A stretch of 64,000 bases of DNA, taken from an uncultured bacterium. GTDB taxonomy: Bacteria; Hydrothermota; Tepidihabitantia; SM23-42; JAOAFX01. This document shows positions 24,101 through 48,330 of this stretch, piece by piece. The position numbers were made by a program, and so were the translations under genes. Positions within the stretch are counted from its first letter, which is position 1. Each line of letters begins with the position of its first letter. The notes beneath the pieces were generated by a model, which saw nothing but the letters and a program-made list of their open reading frames with translations, was not told the origin of the DNA and did no database searches. Location of the stretch: the NCBI GenBank assembly GCA_964418185.1, contig CAYQKL010000001.1, positions 64,409-128,408 on the forward strand. The letters are read 5' to 3'.

Positions 24101-24432
24101 AAGCAAAGGATATCAATCTCACTGGTCTGGCAAAAGATTATGCCCTTGGTTTAGCAAGGGGTACACTTGAAAGGACGGCTGAGAAATCACTGGGGTTTGA
24201 AAAATTCACAATTACGGGTGATCTACTTGAACCCAGACAATGGGATATTGGATTTGAAAAGAGAATTAACAAGAAGCTTACATTTATTTATGGCACAGGT
24301 ATAGAATCCTGGGAAGTGCGCAGGATTGGTATCAATTATGCGATCAATGATAATCTATCAATATTTACACTCCACGATCAGGAAAATATGAATTCAAGTG
24401 TGGACTTTGATTTAAACTTAAAGGTAAAATGA
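21148..24432 (+). CDS. tamB: TamB/AsmA-family translocation and assembly module protein (DUF490-like)
   Basis: 1094 aa; single N-terminal TM anchor then long beta-rich repetitive region; followed by an overlapping (ATGA) BamA/TamA-family gene. Confidence 0.65.
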   Translation: MKKIWVFPVLFVLLFIAIFILAGTPLFLNFAKNKIVSTAQSQVGLPVNIGSLEGNLFYNLKVQDIKIGDLAEIKSINVSYNILSIISRKIEINSLIIDRISLDLDKAKAFARNVTPKKTEEKERRMPLEITIKKMEINNTNIASIINERNIRLLLNIRGALIDQTFAIEQLDIKTEKSYVIIRGNVPLTEENSFNLKYSLFLTVDEIGIGRLKGTVQSTGNIEGKFSNPVISNNTEVSIDYRKEQIRGRFQINWKMPFLDSLDINANFSVRMPDQKLELTLKKKFTNFFAGVISTYGDIRIPGSISGSFEDPRFKSQIQGALKFAGFKPKINGAMTYHGNTLNLNINLSEKNFSARLNGILDILNSKIIKGDIVIRCPEINLVNNFLKEPMPVSGALNMRAEFDGSLDNPYISSKLTLHNATIYNETINKADLKFSLQNEFLYLENGLIQSPRGQINISGNYGTKNSSFNCRISSENIRFESPEVFGNDTIPLSGNIGLDINLYGNISDINGSGKFYLANVFYDKYKFDDQNLEFEIKHNIANICLSDISEHLRLNASIQLEEPYHFDALLSLKHFEFARYLGLESGYICGNISASGDIASPILSEANITVDTISAIAEKNEIHNSEPIYIEIQNGIVRIHKASITVQDHILLVQGQVPLDKRFGDVNLKIQGDHIQIGSLYAIFSKHQAPGGFLDVAIEVKGDLTTPKISGQINFEKVSYALPDILVDSVSGLIKFQKDYFNIEYIKGKINDGTFDITGFIKLDKSGIDTIAINLVITKIDYASKEFGSVILSSSVWFIAKKDSYKINGELTIDQGIYDRPFNLQTITQILTTANRPKEENKLLKQIYCNIGINSPNGIKISNNIANITVDPDLQIKGLLSRINIYGTVKTSSPGEVKYLGKRFDIMRAIIQFDNPHQIDPVLDLEAMHSVSSVDGDYEMTMALTGTIGKWYLKLSSDPPIPEQDIISLLLINRRRPGLYLYTEAKDINLTGLAKDYALGLARGTLERTAEKSLGFEKFTITGDLLEPRQWDIGFEKRINKKLTFIYGTGIESWEVRRIGINYAINDNLSIFTLHDQENMNSSVDFDLNLKVK

Positions 24433-25028
24433 ATCTTCTTATCTTCTTGATATTCCTTCAAGGTGATTTCAGAGTAAAAGAAATAAATATCCAGGGCAAT
24501 AGTTATCTTGAGGAAAAGGCGATAAAAAATATTATGTTCACAAAGACAAAATCACTCTTTCGGAAAGGAAAATTTATCTCCCAAATCTATGGCAGTGATA
24601 TTCTGGCAATAAAGAATCTATATGATTATAACGGATTTCTTGAGAACGAAATCACAGATAGTTTGATATTTGACAGCACGCAGAAACTTGTGGAGATTAA
24701 TATAATAATCAAAGAAGGCATTCAGACCGTTATCAAGGAAATTGAATTTGAAGGGAACAAACTATTTTCTGATCAATTTTTGAAAGAAAAAATAACCACA
24801 AAATCTGAAAAACCATTTGACCGAAGAAAATTTGAGATTGATAATTATGTTATCACCTCTCTATATGATAACATTGGATATACCGAAATTCAAATAAAGA
24901 ACGGGCATATTATAAATGACCACCAGGCAAAGATTGTATATGATATTACTGAAGGAGAAAAGCAGTTTGTTGAGGCAATTGAAATTACTGGTTTGAACCG
25001 GACACGAGAAGATATTGTGCGCAAATAG
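24429..25028 (+). CDS. tamA: TamA/BamA-family outer membrane protein, N-terminal POTRA fragment (terminated by in-frame TAG)
   Basis: POTRA-like sequence. It ends with ...ITGLNRTREDIVRK then TAG at 25026-25028, and the reading frame continues in the same frame as the next ORF. Confidence 0.55.
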   Translation: MNLLIFLIFLQGDFRVKEINIQGNSYLEEKAIKNIMFTKTKSLFRKGKFISQIYGSDILAIKNLYDYNGFLENEITDSLIFDSTQKLVEINIIIKEGIQTVIKEIEFEGNKLFSDQFLKEKITTKSEKPFDRRKFEIDNYVITSLYDNIGYTEIQIKNGHIINDHQAKIVYDITEGEKQFVEAIEITGLNRTREDIVRK

Positions 25029-25034
25029 CTTACC

Positions 25035-26153
25035 TTGAAACCACAGGATATATTCTGTTATGCAAACATTCTAAAAAGCCGACGCAACCTCGCCAACCTC
25101 GGCATCTTCAATTCAATCAGAACCCAGACAAAAAATGGTTCAAAAACAAATTATAAAATTATCCAATTTATTTTTTCCGAGAAGGAAAGGATTGTATTAA
25201 ACCTTCGCCTTGGCTATGGGACCAGAGATTATCTACGATTCGGTGCCGGGCTTACCCATCTCAATATATTGGGCAGAGCCTGTCAAGGAAGGGTTGAAGG
25301 TAAAATAAGTTTTGCTGAGTATCGTCTAAATTCCGAAATCATTTTTCCAAAATTTATCCTGTTCCCGGTACGATACCGTATCGGATCGTTCTATCAATTT
25401 AAGAAGGAGATTGGATTTAAATCCCGGCATATTGGTTTGTATAACGAATTCCGATTCAATTTATTAACCGGCTCATTCTCAACGAAATACAATGTTGAAA
25501 ACATACGGACATATTTTCCCATTGAGAACAATAGTCAAAGCGATAGTATCAAGAACGATTGGCTACACGGAGTTACACTAACCTGGTTGAGAGACAAAAG
25601 AGACGACCCGATATTCGCCAATGCCGGTAATTATACAAATCTCACCATAGAAACAAGTGGAATAATTATGCCCGCCGATGTAAACTATGTGAAACCAACA
25701 GTTGAACAAAGATTCTTCAAACCATTCTTACCAGTAGTCCTTGGCATCTCATTTAAAGCCGGGACAATTCAGGCAATAGCGCCCTCATCAGAAATTCCAG
25801 TCTATAAGCGATTCTATTGTGGCGGCACTACTTCGGTCCGGGGCTATTCAGACTGGTCAATCGGTCCAGAAGATAGTAAGGGAAATCCGCTTGGTGGTAA
25901 AGTCTTGTTTGAAACATCATTAGAATTCAGATTTCCAATCTATAAGATACTCGGTGGAGTATTTTTCATTGATGGAGGAAATGTCTGGACGGAAATTGAC
26001 AATATCAAATTGAATTTGAGATGGGCACTTGGTCCGGGTTTGAGACTGCGTACACCCCTGGGTAGTCTGCGCCTTGATTACGGCATAAAACTAATGCCAG
26101 AAACCAATGAATCATCCGGCGCCTTACACTTCGCAATCGGCGAGGCATTTTGA
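25035..26153 (+). CDS. tamA: TamA/BamA-family outer membrane protein, C-terminal part (rest of POTRA plus Omp85 beta-barrel)
   Basis: Begins LKPQDIFCYANILKSRRNLANLGIF, the continuation of the same POTRA motif. Omp85/surface-antigen barrel with terminal aromatic (…AIGEAF). Same frame as 24429-25028. Confidence 0.6.
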   Translation: MKPQDIFCYANILKSRRNLANLGIFNSIRTQTKNGSKTNYKIIQFIFSEKERIVLNLRLGYGTRDYLRFGAGLTHLNILGRACQGRVEGKISFAEYRLNSEIIFPKFILFPVRYRIGSFYQFKKEIGFKSRHIGLYNEFRFNLLTGSFSTKYNVENIRTYFPIENNSQSDSIKNDWLHGVTLTWLRDKRDDPIFANAGNYTNLTIETSGIIMPADVNYVKPTVEQRFFKPFLPVVLGISFKAGTIQAIAPSSEIPVYKRFYCGGTTSVRGYSDWSIGPEDSKGNPLGGKVLFETSLEFRFPIYKILGGVFFIDGGNVWTEIDNIKLNLRWALGPGLRLRTPLGSLRLDYGIKLMPETNESSGALHFAIGEAF

Positions 26154-29180: not shown

Positions 29181-30734
29181 TTACAACTTAATCAATTTGG
29201 CACATCCGATCAGCACCTCATCTGCTAACACTGCACAAAAGTATACGCCCTGGGAAACACTTTGCAGATCAGCACTTGCTATCCTCACAGATTGCGCTTG
29301 TACTGGATATGAATTCTTATGGATGATTTTACCGCAGGCATCATATATCACAACCTTTACCGTCGAAAGGATAGGACGATTTATCTTCAGTTCAATGGTA
29401 TTTGAGAAAAAAATCGGCCGGGCGGTAACACCGCCATTTGAAAGACTGTAGAACACGACATCATCCACTCCAAAAATTAGGTTACGGTAGATTTGCAATC
29501 CGGCACGGTGGCAAGCACACGCAATATAGTTGACGCCTAATGCCGCTAAACCAAAGGCATAATCGGGCGTCTGATAATGGCCCACTTCATATGGACTGTA
29601 AGGATTATTCACATTGATAACTCTCAAGCCACCGCTACCATCCGCCATATAACAATAGGAACCAACAACTGTTACATCACAAGTCCAACCTGAGGAACTT
29701 AGATTACCAACCAGCACAGGATTTGTTGGATTAGAAACATCAATTATGACTAATCCATTATTATCATCTGCAACATAGGCATAAGAACCAGTGACGAAAA
29801 CACTTCGGGCAGAACCCGCTGTATTATATGAACCAACTAATACCGGGTTTGCAGGATTATTGATGTTGATAATCTGCAATCCCTCAGAAAAATCGGCAAC
29901 ATAAGCGTACGAACCAGCAACAAATACTCCATATGAGTAACCAGGGGTATCATAATAACCGACCTCAACTGGATTAACAGGGTTTGCAATGTTTATCACC
30001 CGTAGTCCGTAGTAGTCGTCTGCCACGTATGCATAATTGCCAACAACATAAATCCCTCGTGCCCACCCTGGAGTAACCAACGAACCAGTTTCATAGGGGT
30101 TTGCTGGATTTGCCACATTAATTATTCTAATTCCGGATGGACCGTCAGCAACATAAGCATAAGAACCAACCACATCAATCTTGTAAGCCGTACCAGGCGT
30201 ATTACACGACCCGATCAATACAGGGTTGGCAGGATTACTGATATTAACAATTTGAATTCCGGCTCCTCCGTCAGCTATGTAAGCATAGGATCCTATAACC
30301 ACAACACCATAAGCGCGGTCCGAGGTATATAAGAAACCGATTCGTGAAGGTGAATTTACATTTGATAAGTTCCAGATTTCAAGACCCCCTAAACCGGTGG
30401 CGATGTAAAGAACTTGGTTAGTAGCAACATAAGACAAACCGCTTACCAGGCCACGCGTTTTAAATCGTGCTATTTCAATCGGATTATTCGGGTCGGTATC
30501 ATCAATTATTACTACACCACCGCCCGTAGAGGCGTACACATAATTACGTGCATTGTCGTGGACAATTGTTATAGCAGGTCCGTAGGGCCAATTGCCTATA
30601 AACCGCACATTCAGAGAATCAAAATCAGTAATTTGTGACTTAATGAAATTATCGCTCGACGAGGCTAACAACAAAATTGGCGTTATGCAGATCAACCAGA
30701 GCAAACAATATATCTGACTTCGTTTATTCATCAT
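29181..30734 (-). CDS. secreted LVIVD-repeat beta-propeller protein with T9SS C-terminal sorting domain
   Basis: Signal peptide. About eight ~42-aa repeats (GSYAYVAD..GL.IIN.SNPANPV.VG.Y.T.G). C-terminal ~80 aa Por/T9SS CTD pattern (TIELKI...VKVVIYDACGKII...GVYFCAV...KLIKL). Confidence 0.7.
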   Translation of the reverse strand: MMNKRSQIYCLLWLICITPILLLASSSDNFIKSQITDFDSLNVRFIGNWPYGPAITIVHDNARNYVYASTGGGVVIIDDTDPNNPIEIARFKTRGLVSGLSYVATNQVLYIATGLGGLEIWNLSNVNSPSRIGFLYTSDRAYGVVVIGSYAYIADGGAGIQIVNISNPANPVLIGSCNTPGTAYKIDVVGSYAYVADGPSGIRIINVANPANPYETGSLVTPGWARGIYVVGNYAYVADDYYGLRVINIANPVNPVEVGYYDTPGYSYGVFVAGSYAYVADFSEGLQIININNPANPVLVGSYNTAGSARSVFVTGSYAYVADDNNGLVIIDVSNPTNPVLVGNLSSSGWTCDVTVVGSYCYMADGSGGLRVINVNNPYSPYEVGHYQTPDYAFGLAALGVNYIACACHRAGLQIYRNLIFGVDDVVFYSLSNGGVTARPIFFSNTIELKINRPILSTVKVVIYDACGKIIHKNSYPVQAQSVRIASADLQSVSQGVYFCAVLADEVLIGCAKLIKL

Positions 30735-33140: not shown

Positions 33141-35579
33141 GTGAAGAAATTTCTGCTTCTTGATGCCCATTCTTTGATATTTCGTGCCTATTTTGCATTT
33201 ATAAGAAACCCACTCAAAAATTCCAAAGGGCAGAACACTTCGGGGATCTTCGGTTTTTTGAATTCATTAAGAAAGATCAAGGCAAAATTTTCAAGCGACT
33301 ACATCGCACTGGCATTCGATGCTCCTGGTGAAACCTTTAGAGACCGGTTCTATAAAGAATATAAAGCAACCAGGCCACCTGCGCCAAAAGATATCCCATT
33401 CCAGATTGAAAAGGCAAAACAGATAAGTCAATTTATAGGAATTACTACTTATGAAATCTCCGGGTATGAGGCGGATGACATATTGGCGACCCTGGCAAAG
33501 AGATTGCAGGCTCATGGCGAAGTCTATATTATCAGTTCAGATAAAGACCTTATGCAACTCATTTCCGAAAATGTGTATGTCTACGATGTATTTAATGATA
33601 TAATCTATGATGTTGCGCAGGTCAAAGAGAAATTTGGTGTGGCACCGGAACGTATCGGTGATTATCTTGCACTCTGCGGTGATTCCATTGATAATGTCCC
33701 GGGTGTGCCAGGCATTGGTCCACGCCGGGCGATAGAAATTCTGAAAAAGTATCCTGACCTTGAGCAGGCACTTGTAAAAGAACCGAAACTTGCTGAATAT
33801 CGGGAAACATTGATACTATCAAAGAAACTTGTTGAACTTGAAACTGATGTTCCGATTGAAATTAACCTTGAAAACTTAATGACAAAACCCCCTGATGTTT
33901 ATAGTCTCCTTAAGGTGCTCTCGGAACTGGAATTCCATTCATTTATAAAGGAATTTGCCAAAAGGATTGATACTGCAGACATAACCAGAAAAGAAATAAT
34001 CAGCCCAGACGAAATAAAAGAGTACGCCGGAATTTTCATTGAGAGTGATAAGGTTTTCATAAGTTTTAGGGGAGAAGAAATCTATATTTCATCTGTGAAT
34101 GATACAATGAATATTATTTCTGATCCCAAGATTGTAAAAATTGGTTATGACCTGAAATCAGCAGTAAAATCTGCACCGATAAAATCACCCCTATTTGACA
34201 TAAAGATTGCAGCCTGGCTCATTGACCCCAACATAAAGAACGATCAGTTTGAAGATATCTGCCTTAAGTATTTAAACTGCTATTCTGAACCCGCACCTGA
34301 GACAGTAACAACTCTTTCCCTAAAACTTTATCCTCTACTAAGCCAGAAACTTGTGGAACTGGGCGAGATTGATCTATATAGAAAGATTGAAGAACCATTG
34401 ATATTTGTCCTCGCTAAAATGGAAGAAAGAGGTATTGGTATTGATCTTGATTTCTTAAGGGAACTCAAACACCGCATCGAAAAGGATATGACCCAACTTG
34501 TTGATGAATGCTACAGTATTGCTGGTAGTGTATTCAATATGAATTCACCCAAACAACTTGCCCAGATTCTTTTTGAAAGGCTCAAACTACCACCGGTAAA
34601 AAAGGGAAAATCCCATTACTCAACAGATTATGAGGTATTACAACAACTGAGCCACAAACATCCATTGCCAAAGAAGATCCTTGAATACCGTGAACTTGCG
34701 AAGGTGTTAGGGACATACATTGATCCGTTGATTGATTTTGCAAAAAATGGCCGGGTTCATACGACCTTTAATCAAACCGGTACTGCTACGGGCAGGCTAT
34801 CCTCAAACAACCCCAATATCCAGAATATTCCGATCCGTACATACCTTGGCAACGAATTAAGAAAAGGATTTGTTGCTCAAAAGGGATTTTTGCTTATTTC
34901 TGCCGACTATTCACAGATTGAATTAAGAATCCTTGCCCATATAACCAAAGACAGAAATCTCGTTGAGGCATTCAAATCCAGCCGTGACATTCATAATCAT
35001 ACTGCATCATTAATTTTTGAGATATCTGAAGATAATGTTGATGATACAAAGCGCAGAATTGCCAAGGTGGTAAATTATGGGTTGATCTATGGGATGACTG
35101 ATTATGGCCTTGCCCAGGAACTGGGGATTTCTCGCGAAGAAGCCGCACAATTCATTCAATCATACTACACACTCTATCCTGAAGTTGATAAATGGAGGCA
35201 ATCAGTAATCTCAGAGGTTGAACAAAAAGGTTATACCGAAACACTCTTTGGTAGAAAAAGACCTATTCCGGAGATAAATTCAGAAAACTACAATTTGAAG
35301 GAGTTTGGAAAGAGACTGGCAATCAACACACCAATCCAGGGTACGGCTGCCGATCTGATAAAATTATCAATGATTGAGGTAGAACATAGATTGACGATGG
35401 CACGATTTAAATCCGGACTGATACTGTCAATTCATGACGAATTACTATTTGAAATAGAAAAAGAAAGAATAGATGAAGCAAAGGCCATAATCAAGGAATC
35501 AATGGAACAAATCAGCAAATTTGAAGTTCCCATTTCAGTAAATATAAATGCCGGCGAAAACTGGGCAGAAGCACACTAA
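33141..35579 (+). CDS. polA: DNA polymerase I (5'-3' exonuclease plus polymerase domains)
   Basis: 812 aa. FEN-like N-terminus (LLLDAHSLIFRAYFA). Pol A motifs DYSQIELRILAH, KVVNYGLIYGM and HDELLFE. The 3'-5' exonuclease acidic motifs are not evident (Taq-like). Confidence 0.9.
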   Translation: MKKFLLLDAHSLIFRAYFAFIRNPLKNSKGQNTSGIFGFLNSLRKIKAKFSSDYIALAFDAPGETFRDRFYKEYKATRPPAPKDIPFQIEKAKQISQFIGITTYEISGYEADDILATLAKRLQAHGEVYIISSDKDLMQLISENVYVYDVFNDIIYDVAQVKEKFGVAPERIGDYLALCGDSIDNVPGVPGIGPRRAIEILKKYPDLEQALVKEPKLAEYRETLILSKKLVELETDVPIEINLENLMTKPPDVYSLLKVLSELEFHSFIKEFAKRIDTADITRKEIISPDEIKEYAGIFIESDKVFISFRGEEIYISSVNDTMNIISDPKIVKIGYDLKSAVKSAPIKSPLFDIKIAAWLIDPNIKNDQFEDICLKYLNCYSEPAPETVTTLSLKLYPLLSQKLVELGEIDLYRKIEEPLIFVLAKMEERGIGIDLDFLRELKHRIEKDMTQLVDECYSIAGSVFNMNSPKQLAQILFERLKLPPVKKGKSHYSTDYEVLQQLSHKHPLPKKILEYRELAKVLGTYIDPLIDFAKNGRVHTTFNQTGTATGRLSSNNPNIQNIPIRTYLGNELRKGFVAQKGFLLISADYSQIELRILAHITKDRNLVEAFKSSRDIHNHTASLIFEISEDNVDDTKRRIAKVVNYGLIYGMTDYGLAQELGISREEAAQFIQSYYTLYPEVDKWRQSVISEVEQKGYTETLFGRKRPIPEINSENYNLKEFGKRLAINTPIQGTAADLIKLSMIEVEHRLTMARFKSGLILSIHDELLFEIEKERIDEAKAIIKESMEQISKFEVPISVNINAGENWAEAH

Positions 35580-35623: not shown

Positions 35624-35824
35624 GTGATTACCAGAAAATCTAAAGTAGAAGATATTTTAAGAGATTTTCCAGAGAAATCAGGCATTTTTGTGCAAATGGG
35701 CCTCCCCTGCCTTGTTTGCGGCGAACCGTTCTGGGGAACAGTTGAGGAACTATGCCTGAGATATAATGTTGAACCTGAAAAACTATTGAAAAGATTAAAC
35801 GAAGACGAAGGAGTAAGAATATGA
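35624..35824 (+). CDS. DUF1858-like small redox/disulfide domain protein (ScdA/RIC N-terminal-domain family)
   Basis: 66 aa with a single CxxC (GLPCLVCGEP); resembles hybrid-cluster-protein-associated DUF1858; ATGA overlap with the next gene. Confidence 0.5.
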   Translation: MITRKSKVEDILRDFPEKSGIFVQMGLPCLVCGEPFWGTVEELCLRYNVEPEKLLKRLNEDEGVRI

Positions 35825-36672
35825 AAAAGTGGAAATATTGCCCAGTGTGCAAAAATAGGTTAACCAGTAAAAAATCATCAATCCTTTGTCAGAACTGCGG
35901 CTGGCGATATTACATCAATCCACTGCCATCAGTTGCAGCATTCGTAATAAATGGAAAAGATGAAATACTTCTGATTAAAAGAGGAATTGATCCGAGTAAA
36001 GGCAAGTGGGCATTATCATCAGGCTTTATTGAATCGGGCGAAACCCCAGAGCAAGCAGTGATCAGAGAATTAAAAGAAGAGACAGGATTAAATGGCAGGG
36101 TAAGGCAAATGCTCGGTGTCCATATCGAACCAACAAAGATTTATGGCGATGTTCTCCTTGTAGGTTATGACATTGAAGTAACAGGTGGTAAAATGAAAGC
36201 TGGTTCTGATACTACAGAAGCAAAATTCTTTCCGAAAAACAAGCTGCCTGAAATTCCATTTTTGAGCCATCGTGTTATCATCAATCAAGGATTGAATAAT
36301 CGGTTAATAAATAATGCCTACATCGAGGTTCTAAAATCAAAGGTGACTGAGGCAATAATTACAGATACTGTCCTGTTTTATAAGGGGAGCATGGGTATTG
36401 ATGCGAAGATTATGGAGGCAGCACATATTAACCCTGGAGAAAAGGTTCAGGTTCTGAATTACGACAATGGCGAAAGGCTTGAAACCTATGTGATTGCAGA
36501 AAAGCCCCACTCAAGAAGATTTGTCCTGTATGGACCGGCTTCACTAAAAGGGGAAAAAGGCCAGAGACTGTGTATTCTTTCGTATGCATTTGTACCCCAG
36601 AATCAGATTAATTCTTTTAAGCCGAGGATTGTTATCCTTGATACAAAAAACCGCATCAAAAAGATCAAGTAA
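35821..36672 (+). CDS. panD: fusion protein: N-terminal zinc-ribbon NUDIX hydrolase plus C-terminal aspartate 1-decarboxylase (PanD, pyruvoyl-dependent)
   Basis: Residues ~1-150 carry CPVC...CQNC and the NUDIX box (GFIESGETPEQAVIRELKEETGL). Residues ~166-283 align to PanD: KSKV, the FYKGS self-cleavage Gly-Ser, INPGEKVQVLNYDNGERLETYVIAEK and LYGPASL. There is no in-frame ATG or RBS at the domain junction. Confidence 0.7.
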   Translation: MKKWKYCPVCKNRLTSKKSSILCQNCGWRYYINPLPSVAAFVINGKDEILLIKRGIDPSKGKWALSSGFIESGETPEQAVIRELKEETGLNGRVRQMLGVHIEPTKIYGDVLLVGYDIEVTGGKMKAGSDTTEAKFFPKNKLPEIPFLSHRVIINQGLNNRLINNAYIEVLKSKVTEAIITDTVLFYKGSMGIDAKIMEAAHINPGEKVQVLNYDNGERLETYVIAEKPHSRRFVLYGPASLKGEKGQRLCILSYAFVPQNQINSFKPRIVILDTKNRIKKIK

Positions 36673-46131: not shown

Positions 46132-48330
46132 ATGAATCAATTGGTTGGGTTTTTCTTAATAACCATTATAGGACTATTCAGTCCACTAAAAAAAATCAGA
46201 GAGATGCAAAGAGATCATTTTGAACCCCAGTACGTACATCCATCAATAAAATCAGAAAATCCATGGAACTGGAATCTTTTCAATCTGCCGGGGGGTGAAA
46301 TCCTCGGTACATTCAGCCATCCTAACGCGCCGAATTTGGCATTTGCCCTTTCATTCCGCGATGTCTGGCGTACAACAGATGGCGGAACGAACTGGGAATT
46401 ATCCTTAGAAAATTGTATGCCCCTGGGGGGACTGATGTCAACACCAACAAGGGGTATAGTAATTGACGGATCAGGCACAGTCTGGATAACCTTAAATGGT
46501 GGCTCAGATTGGGCTGAAGTCTTGTATACGAATAATTTTCAGACGGCAAGTTTTGAAGTGACTGATACGATAATTTACCTTGTTGATAGTACTCCCCCAA
46601 GACTTTGGCGCAGTACAAATTCAGGCCTTTCCTGGCAGGTCATTGGTACTTTTAGTAATCTTTACGCAGTTGACCAAATCACCCATATTCCAAACGCACC
46701 AAATGTCTTTTGGCTGCTGGGTCACACCGTACCTGATGATACACTTACCTATATCTATTATTCATCAGCCAGTGCATTTGTTGATACCATTCCAGCTGAC
46801 GAGGTTTTAGATTTTCAGCCCAATCCGTATAATCCAAATCATACCCTTATTGCTACAAGTAATGGGATGTACCAGGCATTATCTCCGGCTGGTCCATGGA
46901 CAACGCTAAATGAACCACTGGTCTTTGGATTGTATCAACCCGTAGATATTGAATTTACGGGCAATGATTCAATCGTAGTTTCAAGCTATCTCAGTCCCGG
47001 GATTTTTAAAGGACAAAGGCAGTATAATGTGTGGCTATTTTCTTACGTGGAATCGCGTGAGATAGGCACCTATGTAAGTTCCGGCGGACCAACAACCTTT
47101 TATGCTGGCTGTATGGGCAAAGGAGTCTACAAATCTACGGACGATGGTTCCTCCTGGTCAATCCAGAGAAACAATCTCTATGCCCATACCATTATCAGTC
47201 CGGGTTGTGTTAGCTATCCTAATTTGGATACGAGCTTTTACTACATTGGCCTTGGTGGTATCATTTATCGCTTCAGAAACCCGGGTTCTGCTTATGATAC
47301 ATTAAAGAACTTTCTACTTATGGGTTCTGCGATTGAATCTGCTCCAACCAGTCCTAATTTTCTTATTGCCTCCTGCATCGATATGCAGATTTCTGGAACA
47401 ACCTTAAGCATGGGAACGATATTTACATCTAATGATGGTGGAATGAACTGGACAAAGGTTGATTCTAATTACCTGCCCACTGATTTTCTAATAACCAGTA
47501 ATCCTAATATCATTATTGGTCTCTGCGACACATTCTTGATTCGTTCAACAACTGGCGGTACCAACTTCACACCAATATTTGCGCAATCTACTTCTCTGGG
47601 AAATCTTGCGGGTCTTGATACAATCTTTGTCGAAACGGATGACAATGTATTCGTAAGTTATGACCAAGGTGCAAACTGGCAGCTCCTTTTTGTTGACCCC
47701 GGCGACGGCACCAATGAAATCTCCTATGACAATACCCAAAAAATTCTATATTTGACCGATATTCCGATCTACCGATACAACTTGCAAACCGTCATTCTTG
47801 ACAGCATAACATTCAATGGTTATGCAAATTATGTAACTGATGTAGCGCCGAATGGAAAGCTATATTTCTTATACCGTGGTGCCGATACTACCTACATTGC
47901 CCGTTCATTTGATACCGGAAATACTATTGAGCAGGAACCATTTCCTATCTCACACTTGTTTGGAGGGCTGGTCGCCAGCAACAGTGCATTATACTATTAC
48001 GAAGGAGGCAGGAGATTCTGGGTAAATATGGATATAACGCATAAGATTGAAGAAATACATACAGGAAAACAGATTTCACCAGTTTCTATGCCAACAGTAA
48101 TCAGAAAGGGGACAAATTTGACTATTAAATTCACCTCGTCGCAATGGCAAAATTATCCACTCAAGTTCTACGATATTTCAGGCCGAGTTGTAAAAACTAT
48201 TACTCATCAAAATTTCGTTTCAGGATCTGGCGCCATTGAGTTCAGCACAAAGGGGTTTGAATCAGGCGTCTACTTCTTAATAATTGACAATCCACAAAAC
48301 AGGATTGCAAAGAAATTGATTATCTATTGA
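46132..48330 (+). CDS. secreted BNR/Asp-box repeat (sialidase/Ycf48-like beta-propeller) protein with T9SS C-terminal sorting domain
   Basis: Multiple S/T-x-D-x-G-x-x-W boxes (TDGGTNWE, STNSGLSWQ, STDDGSSWS, SNDGGMNWT, TTGGTNFT, YDQGANWQ). C-terminal T9SS CTD (LKFYDISGRVVKTI...GVYFLIID...KKLIIY). SD AAGGAGGA upstream. Confidence 0.7.
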   Translation: MNQLVGFFLITIIGLFSPLKKIREMQRDHFEPQYVHPSIKSENPWNWNLFNLPGGEILGTFSHPNAPNLAFALSFRDVWRTTDGGTNWELSLENCMPLGGLMSTPTRGIVIDGSGTVWITLNGGSDWAEVLYTNNFQTASFEVTDTIIYLVDSTPPRLWRSTNSGLSWQVIGTFSNLYAVDQITHIPNAPNVFWLLGHTVPDDTLTYIYYSSASAFVDTIPADEVLDFQPNPYNPNHTLIATSNGMYQALSPAGPWTTLNEPLVFGLYQPVDIEFTGNDSIVVSSYLSPGIFKGQRQYNVWLFSYVESREIGTYVSSGGPTTFYAGCMGKGVYKSTDDGSSWSIQRNNLYAHTIISPGCVSYPNLDTSFYYIGLGGIIYRFRNPGSAYDTLKNFLLMGSAIESAPTSPNFLIASCIDMQISGTTLSMGTIFTSNDGGMNWTKVDSNYLPTDFLITSNPNIIIGLCDTFLIRSTTGGTNFTPIFAQSTSLGNLAGLDTIFVETDDNVFVSYDQGANWQLLFVDPGDGTNEISYDNTQKILYLTDIPIYRYNLQTVILDSITFNGYANYVTDVAPNGKLYFLYRGADTTYIARSFDTGNTIEQEPFPISHLFGGLVASNSALYYYEGGRRFWVNMDITHKIEEIHTGKQISPVSMPTVIRKGTNLTIKFTSSQWQNYPLKFYDISGRVVKTITHQNFVSGSGAIEFSTKGFESGVYFLIIDNPQNRIAKKLIIY

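Follow-up and report, generated by a model that had tools for sequence, protein, structure and literature searches.

We report on a gene in a 64-kb stretch of contig CAYQKL010000001.1 from an uncultured bacterium (the whole stretch is called the window below), in which a zinc-ribbon Nudix hydrolase domain and a pyruvoyl-dependent aspartate 1-decarboxylase (PanD) domain are encoded as one polypeptide. Its complete open reading frame (ORF) runs from a four-cysteine zinc ribbon through a complete Nudix domain and a variable linker of about 10 residues into a full PanD domain. An earlier interpretation made from the letters alone (the sequence-only reading) had proposed this fusion, and the single polypeptide is real: both domains score above their Pfam cutoffs and catalytic residues are intact in both halves. 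We consider it probable that the fusion is a bifunctional protein, combining a PanD decarboxylase with a Nudix hydrolase, which has become fixed in one lineage of candidate division WOR-3.

Architecture and family of the fusion

A Pfam scan placed the NUDIX profile PF00293 on residues 36-142 of the 283-residue product (E = 4.1e-20; 72.6 bits against a gathering threshold of 21.1) and the Asp_decarbox profile PF02261 on residues 168-279 (profile positions 3-114/115; E = 6.9e-33; 113.4 bits against a gathering threshold of 25), and the two matches do not overlap. The latter score also answers the reservation, made in the sequence-only reading, that the C-terminal domain might fail PanD hidden Markov models. 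All the motifs quoted there were found again, namely CPVC...CQNC in the zinc ribbon, the Nudix box GFIESGETPEQAVIRELKEETGL, KSKV with K174, FYKGS with G189-S190, RLETY and LYGPAS. A protein identical to the ORF product is present in public assemblies (P0001).

The junction itself offers little room for a second gene start. There is no in-frame ATG from codon 140 to codon 180, as had been claimed from the sequence alone, and the only in-frame alternatives near the junction are TTG148, TTG158 and GTG175. An internal start giving a separate PanD was rejected, since no in-frame ATG exists, L158 varies within the family and GTG175 is already preceded by the catalytic lysine. Base composition is uniform across the junction, with G+C fractions of 0.38 and 0.41 for the two halves and 0.39 for the window. 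The linker, residues 159-167, is the least conserved part of the protein and the sole stretch with frequent gaps in the 120-member family alignment described below. An AlphaFold2 model built on this alignment has a mean predicted local distance difference test score (pLDDT) of 89.3 and a predicted template modelling score (pTM) of 0.53, with pLDDT falling to about 70 in the linker; it describes two well-defined predicted domains without a fixed mutual orientation. A gapped, variable linker of lower confidence fits with two independent domains.

To what extent the fusion is conserved was seen from a search of 5.8 billion proteins, which gave 639 matches; all family figures in this text refer to the best 120 clusters. 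Every one of these carries both PF00293 and PF02261. Their lengths are 269-295 amino acids (aa), nearly all of them 280-295, and their alignments to the query extend over 92-100% of it at 54-76% identity. The sources are assemblies of NCBI, JGI, ENA and Logan, with contigs of up to 353 kb, and where an organism is named it is “candidate division WOR-3 bacterium” or plain “bacterium”; the taxonomic range given here is based on these source names. A single-protein scan of a collection of species-representative genomes returned five loci with the fusion, one of them labelled “bacterium” and the others WOR-3, and a metagenome scan by Nudix-motif patterns returned at least one fused locus together with at least 79 stand-alone Nudix loci. 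When the PanD domain alone was used as the query in an exhaustive HMMER scan of 1.84 billion representatives at 50% identity, 2139 proteins matched, and only two of the best 150 were fused (P0074, 289 aa; P0121, 280 aa). The remainder of these 150 were mostly stand-alone proteins of about 110-130 aa, with a minority bearing N-terminal extensions of a few dozen residues. With so few fused proteins among the best matches, the Nudix–PanD fusion looks like one narrow, lineage-specific family and not like a recurrent architecture. The neighbourhoods of 19 close homologues that are stand-alone zinc-ribbon Nudix proteins (L018-L035, L006, L007) showed no split nudix and panD pair representing a pre-fusion state.

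The frameshift or assembly error that the sequence-only reading had named as its possible undoing, that is a merger of adjacent nudix and panD genes by frameshift, sequencing error or chimeric assembly, has a negligible probability and is ruled out by more than 120 concordant orthologous clusters: although the window holds at least one apparent in-frame stop elsewhere (25026-25028) and is not error-proof, the continuous frame is kept throughout these clusters from independent assemblies, the linker differs in length and sequence but never contains a stop or a conserved start, and the base composition does not change over the junction.

Conservation and fold of the two halves

The PanD half was examined in an alignment of the 120 family members with E. 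coli PanD, and the result was confirmed on 66 sequences. K174, Y187, S190, R219, T222 and Y223, which correspond to Lys9, Tyr22, Ser25, Arg54, Thr57 and Tyr58 of the E. coli enzyme, are present in all 120. G189, the equivalent of Gly24 at the self-processing site, is kept in 116 of them, with Ala in three (P0041, P0043, P0103) and Ser in one (P0086); these four members may be inactive, may process differently or may reflect sequencing errors. The E. coli G24S mutant, for which a crystal structure has been deposited (1pqf), is reportedly unprocessed. Thr57 is needed for activation of E. coli PanD, and Tyr58 is its proposed proton donor (PMC3975893).

The closest solved structure to the C-terminal half is the PanD of Francisella tularensis in its cleaved form (3oug; E = 3e-24, about 48% identity). 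The PanD half of the AlphaFold2 model superposes on it at 1.0 Å with a TM-score of 0.96 normalised to the target, and lies within 0.8-1.3 Å of E. coli and M. tuberculosis PanD (TM-score 0.97 against 1ppy). Compared with 3oug and 1ppy, the modelled half thus has the double-psi beta-barrel fold of PanD.

Conservation is equally strong in the Nudix half. The zinc-ribbon cysteines C7, C10, C23 and C26 are found in 118-120 of the 120 members, the Nudix zinc-ribbon profile PF14803 is matched by many of the orthologues, and the ribbon can be aligned to residues 95-130 of E. coli NudC, where that protein binds zinc. In the Nudix box G68, E74, R82, E83, L84, E86 and E87 are invariant, and the full box pattern is present in 119 of 120. 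A Foldseek search with this half gave the uncharacterised zinc-ribbon Nudix protein 3cng and NudC (5iw4, 7e44) as the best matches (E about 1e-11), with NUDT18 also matched, and the solved structures found by sequence were assorted MutT/Nudix proteins, E. coli NudC and again 3cng. By profile (PF00293), Nudix box and fold the N-terminal half is therefore a member of the Nudix superfamily. Since the metal-binding glutamates are intact, we argue for a catalytically active hydrolase, as far as residues can tell, rather than a degenerate ligand-binding module.

Assignment to a subfamily was less straightforward. The sequence-only reading had called the domain CoA- or NADH-pyrophosphatase-like, and this label did not hold up. 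The best NCBIfam Nudix model, the NudC equivalog NF001299 (NAD(+) diphosphatase), scored 56.5 bits against a cutoff of 158 and was covered at model positions 100-242 only, and the NudC motif SQPWPFPxS occurs in none of the 120 members, which carry EPTKxYG in its place. The signature of coenzyme A (CoA) pyrophosphatases of the NudL/Nudt7 type (PROSITE PS01293, upstream of the box) was likewise absent from all 120 in strict or relaxed form, and no CoA-pyrophosphatase model appeared among the best 25 NCBIfam matches. Membership of both groups was ruled out on these grounds, by score and motif for NudC and by motif for the CoA pyrophosphatases. ADP-ribose pyrophosphatases are distinguished by a conserved proline about 15 residues past the Nudix box. 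In the fusion family P104, 14 residues past L90 of the box, is kept in only 80 of 120, Tyr108-Gly109 at 18-19 residues past the box is invariant, and matches to NadM-Nudix and ADP-sugar pyrophosphatase models are weak. On sequence criteria the Nudix half would thus belong to the superfamily without fitting any characterised subfamily. Its closest stand-alone relatives are zinc-ribbon Nudix proteins of 33-51% identity, from many metagenomes and from Rokubacteria, and among those examined none adjoins a gene for PanD, DUF1858, radical SAM or DUF6125 proteins.

A probable bifunctional protein and its alternatives

How could such a fusion work? In the mechanism that we favour, the C-terminal 118 residues would be a working though divergent pyruvoyl-dependent aspartate 1-decarboxylase and would serve as the PanD of the lineage. 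After a rearrangement the proenzyme would cut its own chain at the G189-S190 bond, whose carbonyl T222 would polarise, and S190 would be turned into the pyruvoyl cofactor at the N-terminus of an alpha chain of 94 residues and 10.7 kDa. The beta chain would comprise 189 residues (21.2 kDa) and run from the zinc ribbon over the Nudix domain and the linker to the end of the first barrel strand of PanD; these calculated masses agree with the fragments of about 21 and 11 kDa predicted by the sequence-only reading. Because that first strand (residues 168-189) belongs to the barrel and would remain in it, the Nudix domain is expected to stay attached after cleavage, and the assembly would be a PanD-type tetramer bearing four Nudix domains on flexible linkers. 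Its core would convert L-aspartate to beta-alanine for pantothenate and CoA, and the Nudix domain, of NudC/3cng-like topology, would act as a Mg-dependent nucleoside-diphosphate-X pyrophosphatase. E. coli PanD has been crystallised from constructs extended at the N-terminus by about 17 residues (143-aa chains, aligned from residue 22), so the PanD N-terminus tolerates additions. A complete pantothenate pathway has been reported in WOR-3 metagenome-assembled genomes, where the panD that was counted is not specified (PMC10766756).

Several results weigh against this mechanism. TIGR00223, the NCBIfam equivalog for panD, gives the fusion 94 bits and thus falls under its cutoff of 106. His11, Asn72 and Ile86 of E. 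coli PanD are all replaced family-wide: His11 by Thr in 110 of the 120 fused proteins (it is His in 128 of 147 stand-alone representatives), Asn72 by Tyr in every fused protein (Asn in 126 and Tyr in 11 of the 147) and Ile86 by Cys, again in every one (Ile in 112 of the 147). The E. coli H11A mutant crystallised unprocessed (1pt1). The side chain of Asn72 is hydrogen-bonded to the hydroxyl of Ser25 in the zymogen of E. coli, and Ile86 is counted among the conserved residues near the active site (PMC3975893). Given these replacements, the processing chemistry or the substrate of the fused enzyme could differ. The Thr-Glu pair that had been pointed out at the position of His11-Arg12 is indeed there (T176, E177) and unusual. 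LYGPAS, put forward in the same reading as a conserved match, is present, but it does not serve as such since the Asn72-to-Tyr change sits inside the motif; this change and that of Ile86 to Cys had both been missed. The genomic context is also not that of a pantothenate gene. The 120 family proteins were clustered at 35% distance into 20 clades and the neighbourhoods of eight clades were examined. Neither the 64-kb window nor the 5-10 kb flanking the fusion in these eight clades contains panB, panC or panE, the window holds no pantothenate or CoA gene other than the fusion, and the conserved neighbours (DUF1858, DUF89, radical SAM and DUF6125 genes) are not pantothenate genes. A pan-operon context for the fusion was looked for in the window and in the clade flanks and was not found.

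The residue changes need not mean loss of function. The Francisella enzyme 3oug has Ser at position 11 and was nevertheless crystallised in cleaved form, hence His11 is not universally needed. The nearest stand-alone PanDs, P0122 (51% identity) and P0123 (49%), start with Met at the canonical position and combine Tyr72 with a residue other than His at position 11, and P0123 also has Cys86; the stand-alone Tyr72 clusters are found on short metagenome contigs. Since such stand-alone proteins exist, the sequences suggest that the fused PanD domain stems from a natural minority subtype of PanD, in which the hydrogen bond to Ser25 could be made by the hydroxyl of Tyr72 instead. As the Pfam profile, the modelled fold and the catalytic residues agree with PanD, and the strict equivalog and the three conserved positions do not, we class this half as a divergent PanD-type decarboxylase rather than as a proven orthologue. 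No second PanD or Nudix paralogue is encoded in the window.

The comparison with characterised proteins shows how far the fusion departs from them. Stand-alone PanDs (E. coli; M. tuberculosis, 2c45; F. tularensis, 3oug) have in common with it the double-psi beta-barrel, the Gly-Ser site and the residues Lys9, Tyr22, Arg54, Thr57 and Tyr58. The fusion differs from them by an N-terminal zinc-ribbon Nudix enzyme of 165 residues, by Tyr72 and Cys86, by a TIGR00223 score below the cutoff and by the lack of adjoining panB or panC. The beta chain of PanD is normally a 24-residue peptide, whereas that of the fusion is predicted to have 189 residues. NudC, an NAD(H) pyrophosphatase that also decaps NAD- and dephospho-CoA-RNA, has the same CxxC…CxxC ribbon, YxNP motif and complete Nudix box, and is together with 3cng, from Nitrosomonas europaea, the best structural match to the N-terminal half; the fusion lacks the N-terminal domain of about 95 residues (the alignment starts at NudC residue 95) as well as SQPWPFPxS. 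Nudix domains are often fused to other enzymes. A precedent for fusion to an enzyme of cofactor biosynthesis is NadM–Nudix, which joins an NMN adenylyltransferase to an ADP-ribose pyrophosphatase. Its domains stand in the reverse order, its partner enzyme bears no relation to PanD, and ADP-ribose belongs to that partner's own pathway; the similarity of the Nudix half to NadM–Nudix models is weak (E = 6e-10 to 5e-5; 38.8 bits against 418).

Beyond a protein that simply carries two activities, it is conceivable, though we would not count on it, that the Nudix and PanD domains form one machine that couples the output of beta-alanine to the level of, or damage to, a nucleotide cofactor, for example CoA, dephospho-CoA or NAD. 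Partners in this might be the translationally coupled DUF1858 redox-disulfide protein and the products of the downstream DUF89, radical SAM and DUF6125 genes. If true, this would be a cis counterpart of the control exerted by PanZ and would define a new cofactor-homeostasis operon in an uncultured phylum. The suggestion of the sequence-only reading that the fusion serves channelling or regulation in CoA or pantothenate metabolism has to stay conjectural, since no panB, panC or panE lies near the gene in the eight clades. A comparable pairing is reportedly found in PanK4-type proteins (said to have been described by Huang and colleagues in 2016), where a pantothenate kinase is joined to a DUF89 damage-control phosphatase. 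They likewise unite a CoA-pathway enzyme with a “house-cleaning” hydrolase, and in some loci of WOR-3 a DUF89 gene adjoins the fusion. Enzymes and organisms differ between the two cases, and in WOR-3 the DUF89 protein is encoded by a separate gene that is absent from the window.

A regulatory role in cis appears unlikely to us. By analogy with PanZ, the Nudix domain would then mainly bind and slowly hydrolyse CoA, dephospho-CoA or acyl-CoA, and binding of a nucleotide end product would gate the maturation or the activity of PanD in the way PanZ·acetyl-CoA does. PanZ·acetyl-CoA activates E. coli PanD and then feedback-inhibits it, so that control of PanD by a CoA-sensing partner in trans is known (PMC4410942). 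In the enterobacterial PanD–PanZ(PanM)·acetyl-CoA complex a second, nucleotide/CoA-binding module may be said to sit physically on PanD, as it would here (PMC4410942). The Nudix domain would stay tethered beside the active-site loop through the beta-chain strand, NudC bound to dephospho-CoA (7e44) is among its closest solved relatives, and altered residues around the processing site (T176, Y237, C251) would be expected if activation differs. However, the likeness to PanZ is one of analogy only, as PanZ is a separate protein of the GNAT fold acting in trans and the fusion partner has a Nudix fold and lies in cis. The catalytic Nudix-box glutamates are all invariant, which speaks for turnover and not for sensing alone, no family member has the CoA-pyrophosphatase signature, the AlphaFold2 model has no confident packing between the domains (low pTM and a low-pLDDT linker), and stand-alone PanDs of the Tyr72 type occur without any fused Nudix domain.

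We give no better odds to a third possibility, that the fusion is not an enzyme of pantothenate synthesis at all and catalyses a step of an uncharacterised pathway encoded by its neighbours, in the order DUF1858 – Nudix/PanD – (DUF89 phosphatase) – radical SAM – DUF6125. Such a pathway might for example make, salvage or control damage to a nucleotide-linked or thiol cofactor, with the PanD-like domain decarboxylating aspartate or an aspartate-like amine for it. The neighbourhoods lend this some weight. A DUF1858 gene lies directly upstream of the fusion, overlapping its start codon or abutting it, in seven of the eight clades (in L097 and L099 it was not called as a gene yet is detectable by tblastn), and a radical SAM gene lies downstream, also in seven of eight, even where the outer flanks wholly differ. 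In the window the genes are linked by stop/start overlaps (ATGA on one side, 35 nt on the other). Three loci have a DUF89/ARMT1-like gene, of the damage-control phosphatase family, between the fusion and the radical SAM gene (L017, 7008-7700; L097, 6008-6700; L098, 5978-6697), of which L017 and L097 may be the same organism; the window's clade lacks it. The active-site-proximal residues unlike those of canonical PanD and the sub-cutoff TIGR00223 score would also fit.

Other observations speak against a dedicated pathway of this kind. DUF6125 follows in only five of the eight clades and two are without it, and in clade L013 (P0024) the fusion has none of the DUF1858, radical SAM and DUF6125 neighbours. 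The radical SAM/DUF6125 pair is very common in other phyla without the Nudix–PanD gene. The radical SAM family counts at least 8000 clusters, with proteins about 50% identical in Aminicenantes and Elusimicrobiota, and the unusually conserved DUF6125 more than 5000, of which 120 listed ones are 59-87% identical to the window protein (about 70% in Aminicenantes and Acidobacteriota proteins) and some are labelled ATC hydrolase. An overlapping pair of the two genes, the radical SAM protein with the N-terminus …YGPVPSRRLG…, was also found without the fusion and outside WOR-3 (L102, 5001-6502). Being spread far more widely than the fusion and paired without it, the radical SAM/DUF6125 module clearly exists independently. 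The coupling to DUF1858 is the more specific association. Furthermore, the family keeps the equivalent of each aspartate-binding residue (K9, R54, T57, Y58), and the nearest stand-alone Nudix homologues do not have such neighbours. The block of DUF1858, fusion, (DUF89), radical SAM and (DUF6125) genes is probably an operon in WOR-3 in any case. No NCBIfam equivalog reaches its cutoff with the radical SAM protein, PDB sequence searches returned no relative of it or of the DUF6125 protein, and we found no paper on DUF6125 and none that ties DUF89 to this radical SAM family. Lastly, two adjacent genes could have merged into the fusion with no consequence for function.

Returning to the bifunctional protein that we favour, the interest of the fusion lies in its description and its function, as the sequences are already deposited under one-domain names: “aspartate 1-decarboxylase” at NCBI, and “8-oxo-dGTP diphosphatase” or “L-aspartate-alpha-decarboxylase” at JGI. 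Public annotation thus names these proteins after one of their two domains. There is no dedicated NCBIfam model for the fusion, and we found no paper describing the architecture in a literature whose coverage was thin on subscription journals, in agreement with the sequence-only reading, which had not been aware of one. Both halves belong to very well-known superfamilies and no new mechanism has been shown so far. Yet a natural PanD with a complete second enzyme as its predicted beta chain would test the tolerance of the processing reaction and of the tetramer, and the replacement of His11, Asn72 and Ile86, residues that figure in the literature on E. coli activation, could reveal autoactivation without PanZ. 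The enzyme-sized beta chain and the Thr11/Tyr72/Cys86 surroundings of the active site should be noteworthy to specialists of pyruvoyl enzymes. If the domains were coupled, they would represent a second, independently evolved tie of beta-alanine supply to the status of a nucleotide cofactor. The fusion also marks a conserved, probable WOR-3 operon of genes of unknown function (DUF1858, radical SAM, DUF6125).

Features and other genes of the window

The coordinates of the fusion gene, of its domains and residues and of the adjoining genes are collected in Table 1. The upstream neighbour, a DUF1858 protein, weakly matches a redox disulfide domain associated with the hybrid-cluster protein.

Table 1. 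Positions of the Nudix–PanD fusion, its parts and its neighbours in the window.
Feature	Positions	Strand	Remarks
DUF1858 gene, 66 aa, CxxC	35624..35824	+	PF08984 and TIGR03980, both under cutoffs; stop overlaps fusion start (ATGA)
Complete Nudix–PanD fusion ORF	35821..36672	+	ATG start, 283 codons, TAA stop; from ORF list and sequence
N-terminal zinc ribbon (residues 5-34; C7, C10, C23, C26), followed by YxNP motif	35833..35922	+	
Nudix fold, residues 36-158, including C-terminal helix 148-158	35926..36294	+	PF00293; AlphaFold2 pLDDT about 90
Nudix box G68-L90 (GX5EX7REUXEEXGU)	36022..36090	+	
Variable interdomain linker, residues 159-167	36295..36321	+	
PanD domain, residues 168-283	36322..36669	+	PF02261
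K174 (Lys9 equivalent) and T176 (replaces His11)	36340..36348	+	
Predicted self-cleavage site G189|S190 (E. coli Gly24-Ser25)	36385..36390	+	codons ggg agc
R219, T222, Y223 (Arg54, Thr57, Tyr58 equivalents)	36475..36489	+	
Y237, in place of Asn72	36529..36531	+	
C251, in place of Ile86	36571..36573	+	sole Cys outside zinc ribbon
Radical SAM gene, 321 aa	36638..37603	+	PF04055; TTG start; 35-nt overlap with fusion 3' end
DUF6125 gene, 175 aa	37581..38108	+	PF19620, E = 2e-83; overlaps end of radical SAM gene

Besides the fusion block, the window encodes TamB, an Omp85-like protein, hypF, hypC, secreted repeat proteins and polA, and also cell-envelope genes, a dCTP deaminase, an aminotransferase, an aspartate/ornithine carbamoyltransferase, RNase Y and a thrS–infC–rplT–pheST cluster, for whose thrS product a look-up gave no result.

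On the minus strand, about 23 co-directional and mostly overlapping genes (141-20371) form a very long super-operon for amino-acid biosynthesis, with functions in the histidine, tryptophan, shikimate/chorismate and prephenate pathways and DAHP synthase. Among its products are a shikimate kinase fused to dehydroquinate synthase (517 aa) and two DAHP synthases encoded in tandem. The in-frame TAG at 25026-25028 (plus strand) splits a gene for a POTRA and Omp85 protein of the TamA/BamA-like type into two ORFs (24429..25028 and 25035..26153; …EDIVRK*LTLKPQDIF…), and a Logan assembly of the same organism has a single product of 574 aa with the same end coordinate; this stop could reflect an error of sequencing, variation between strains or a pseudogene.

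The DNA polymerase I gene (33141-35579, plus strand) has Pfam matches to the 5'-3' exonuclease and polymerase domains, with no 3'-5' exonuclease match on record, and its product is 812 aa from a GTG start in the ORF list against 773 aa in the public gene call. Finally, two secreted repeat proteins, one with LVIVD repeats (29181-30734, minus strand) and one sortilin/BNR-like (46132-48330, plus strand), both end in Por_Secre_tail C-terminal sorting domains, which imply that this WOR-3 organism has a type IX-like secretion system.

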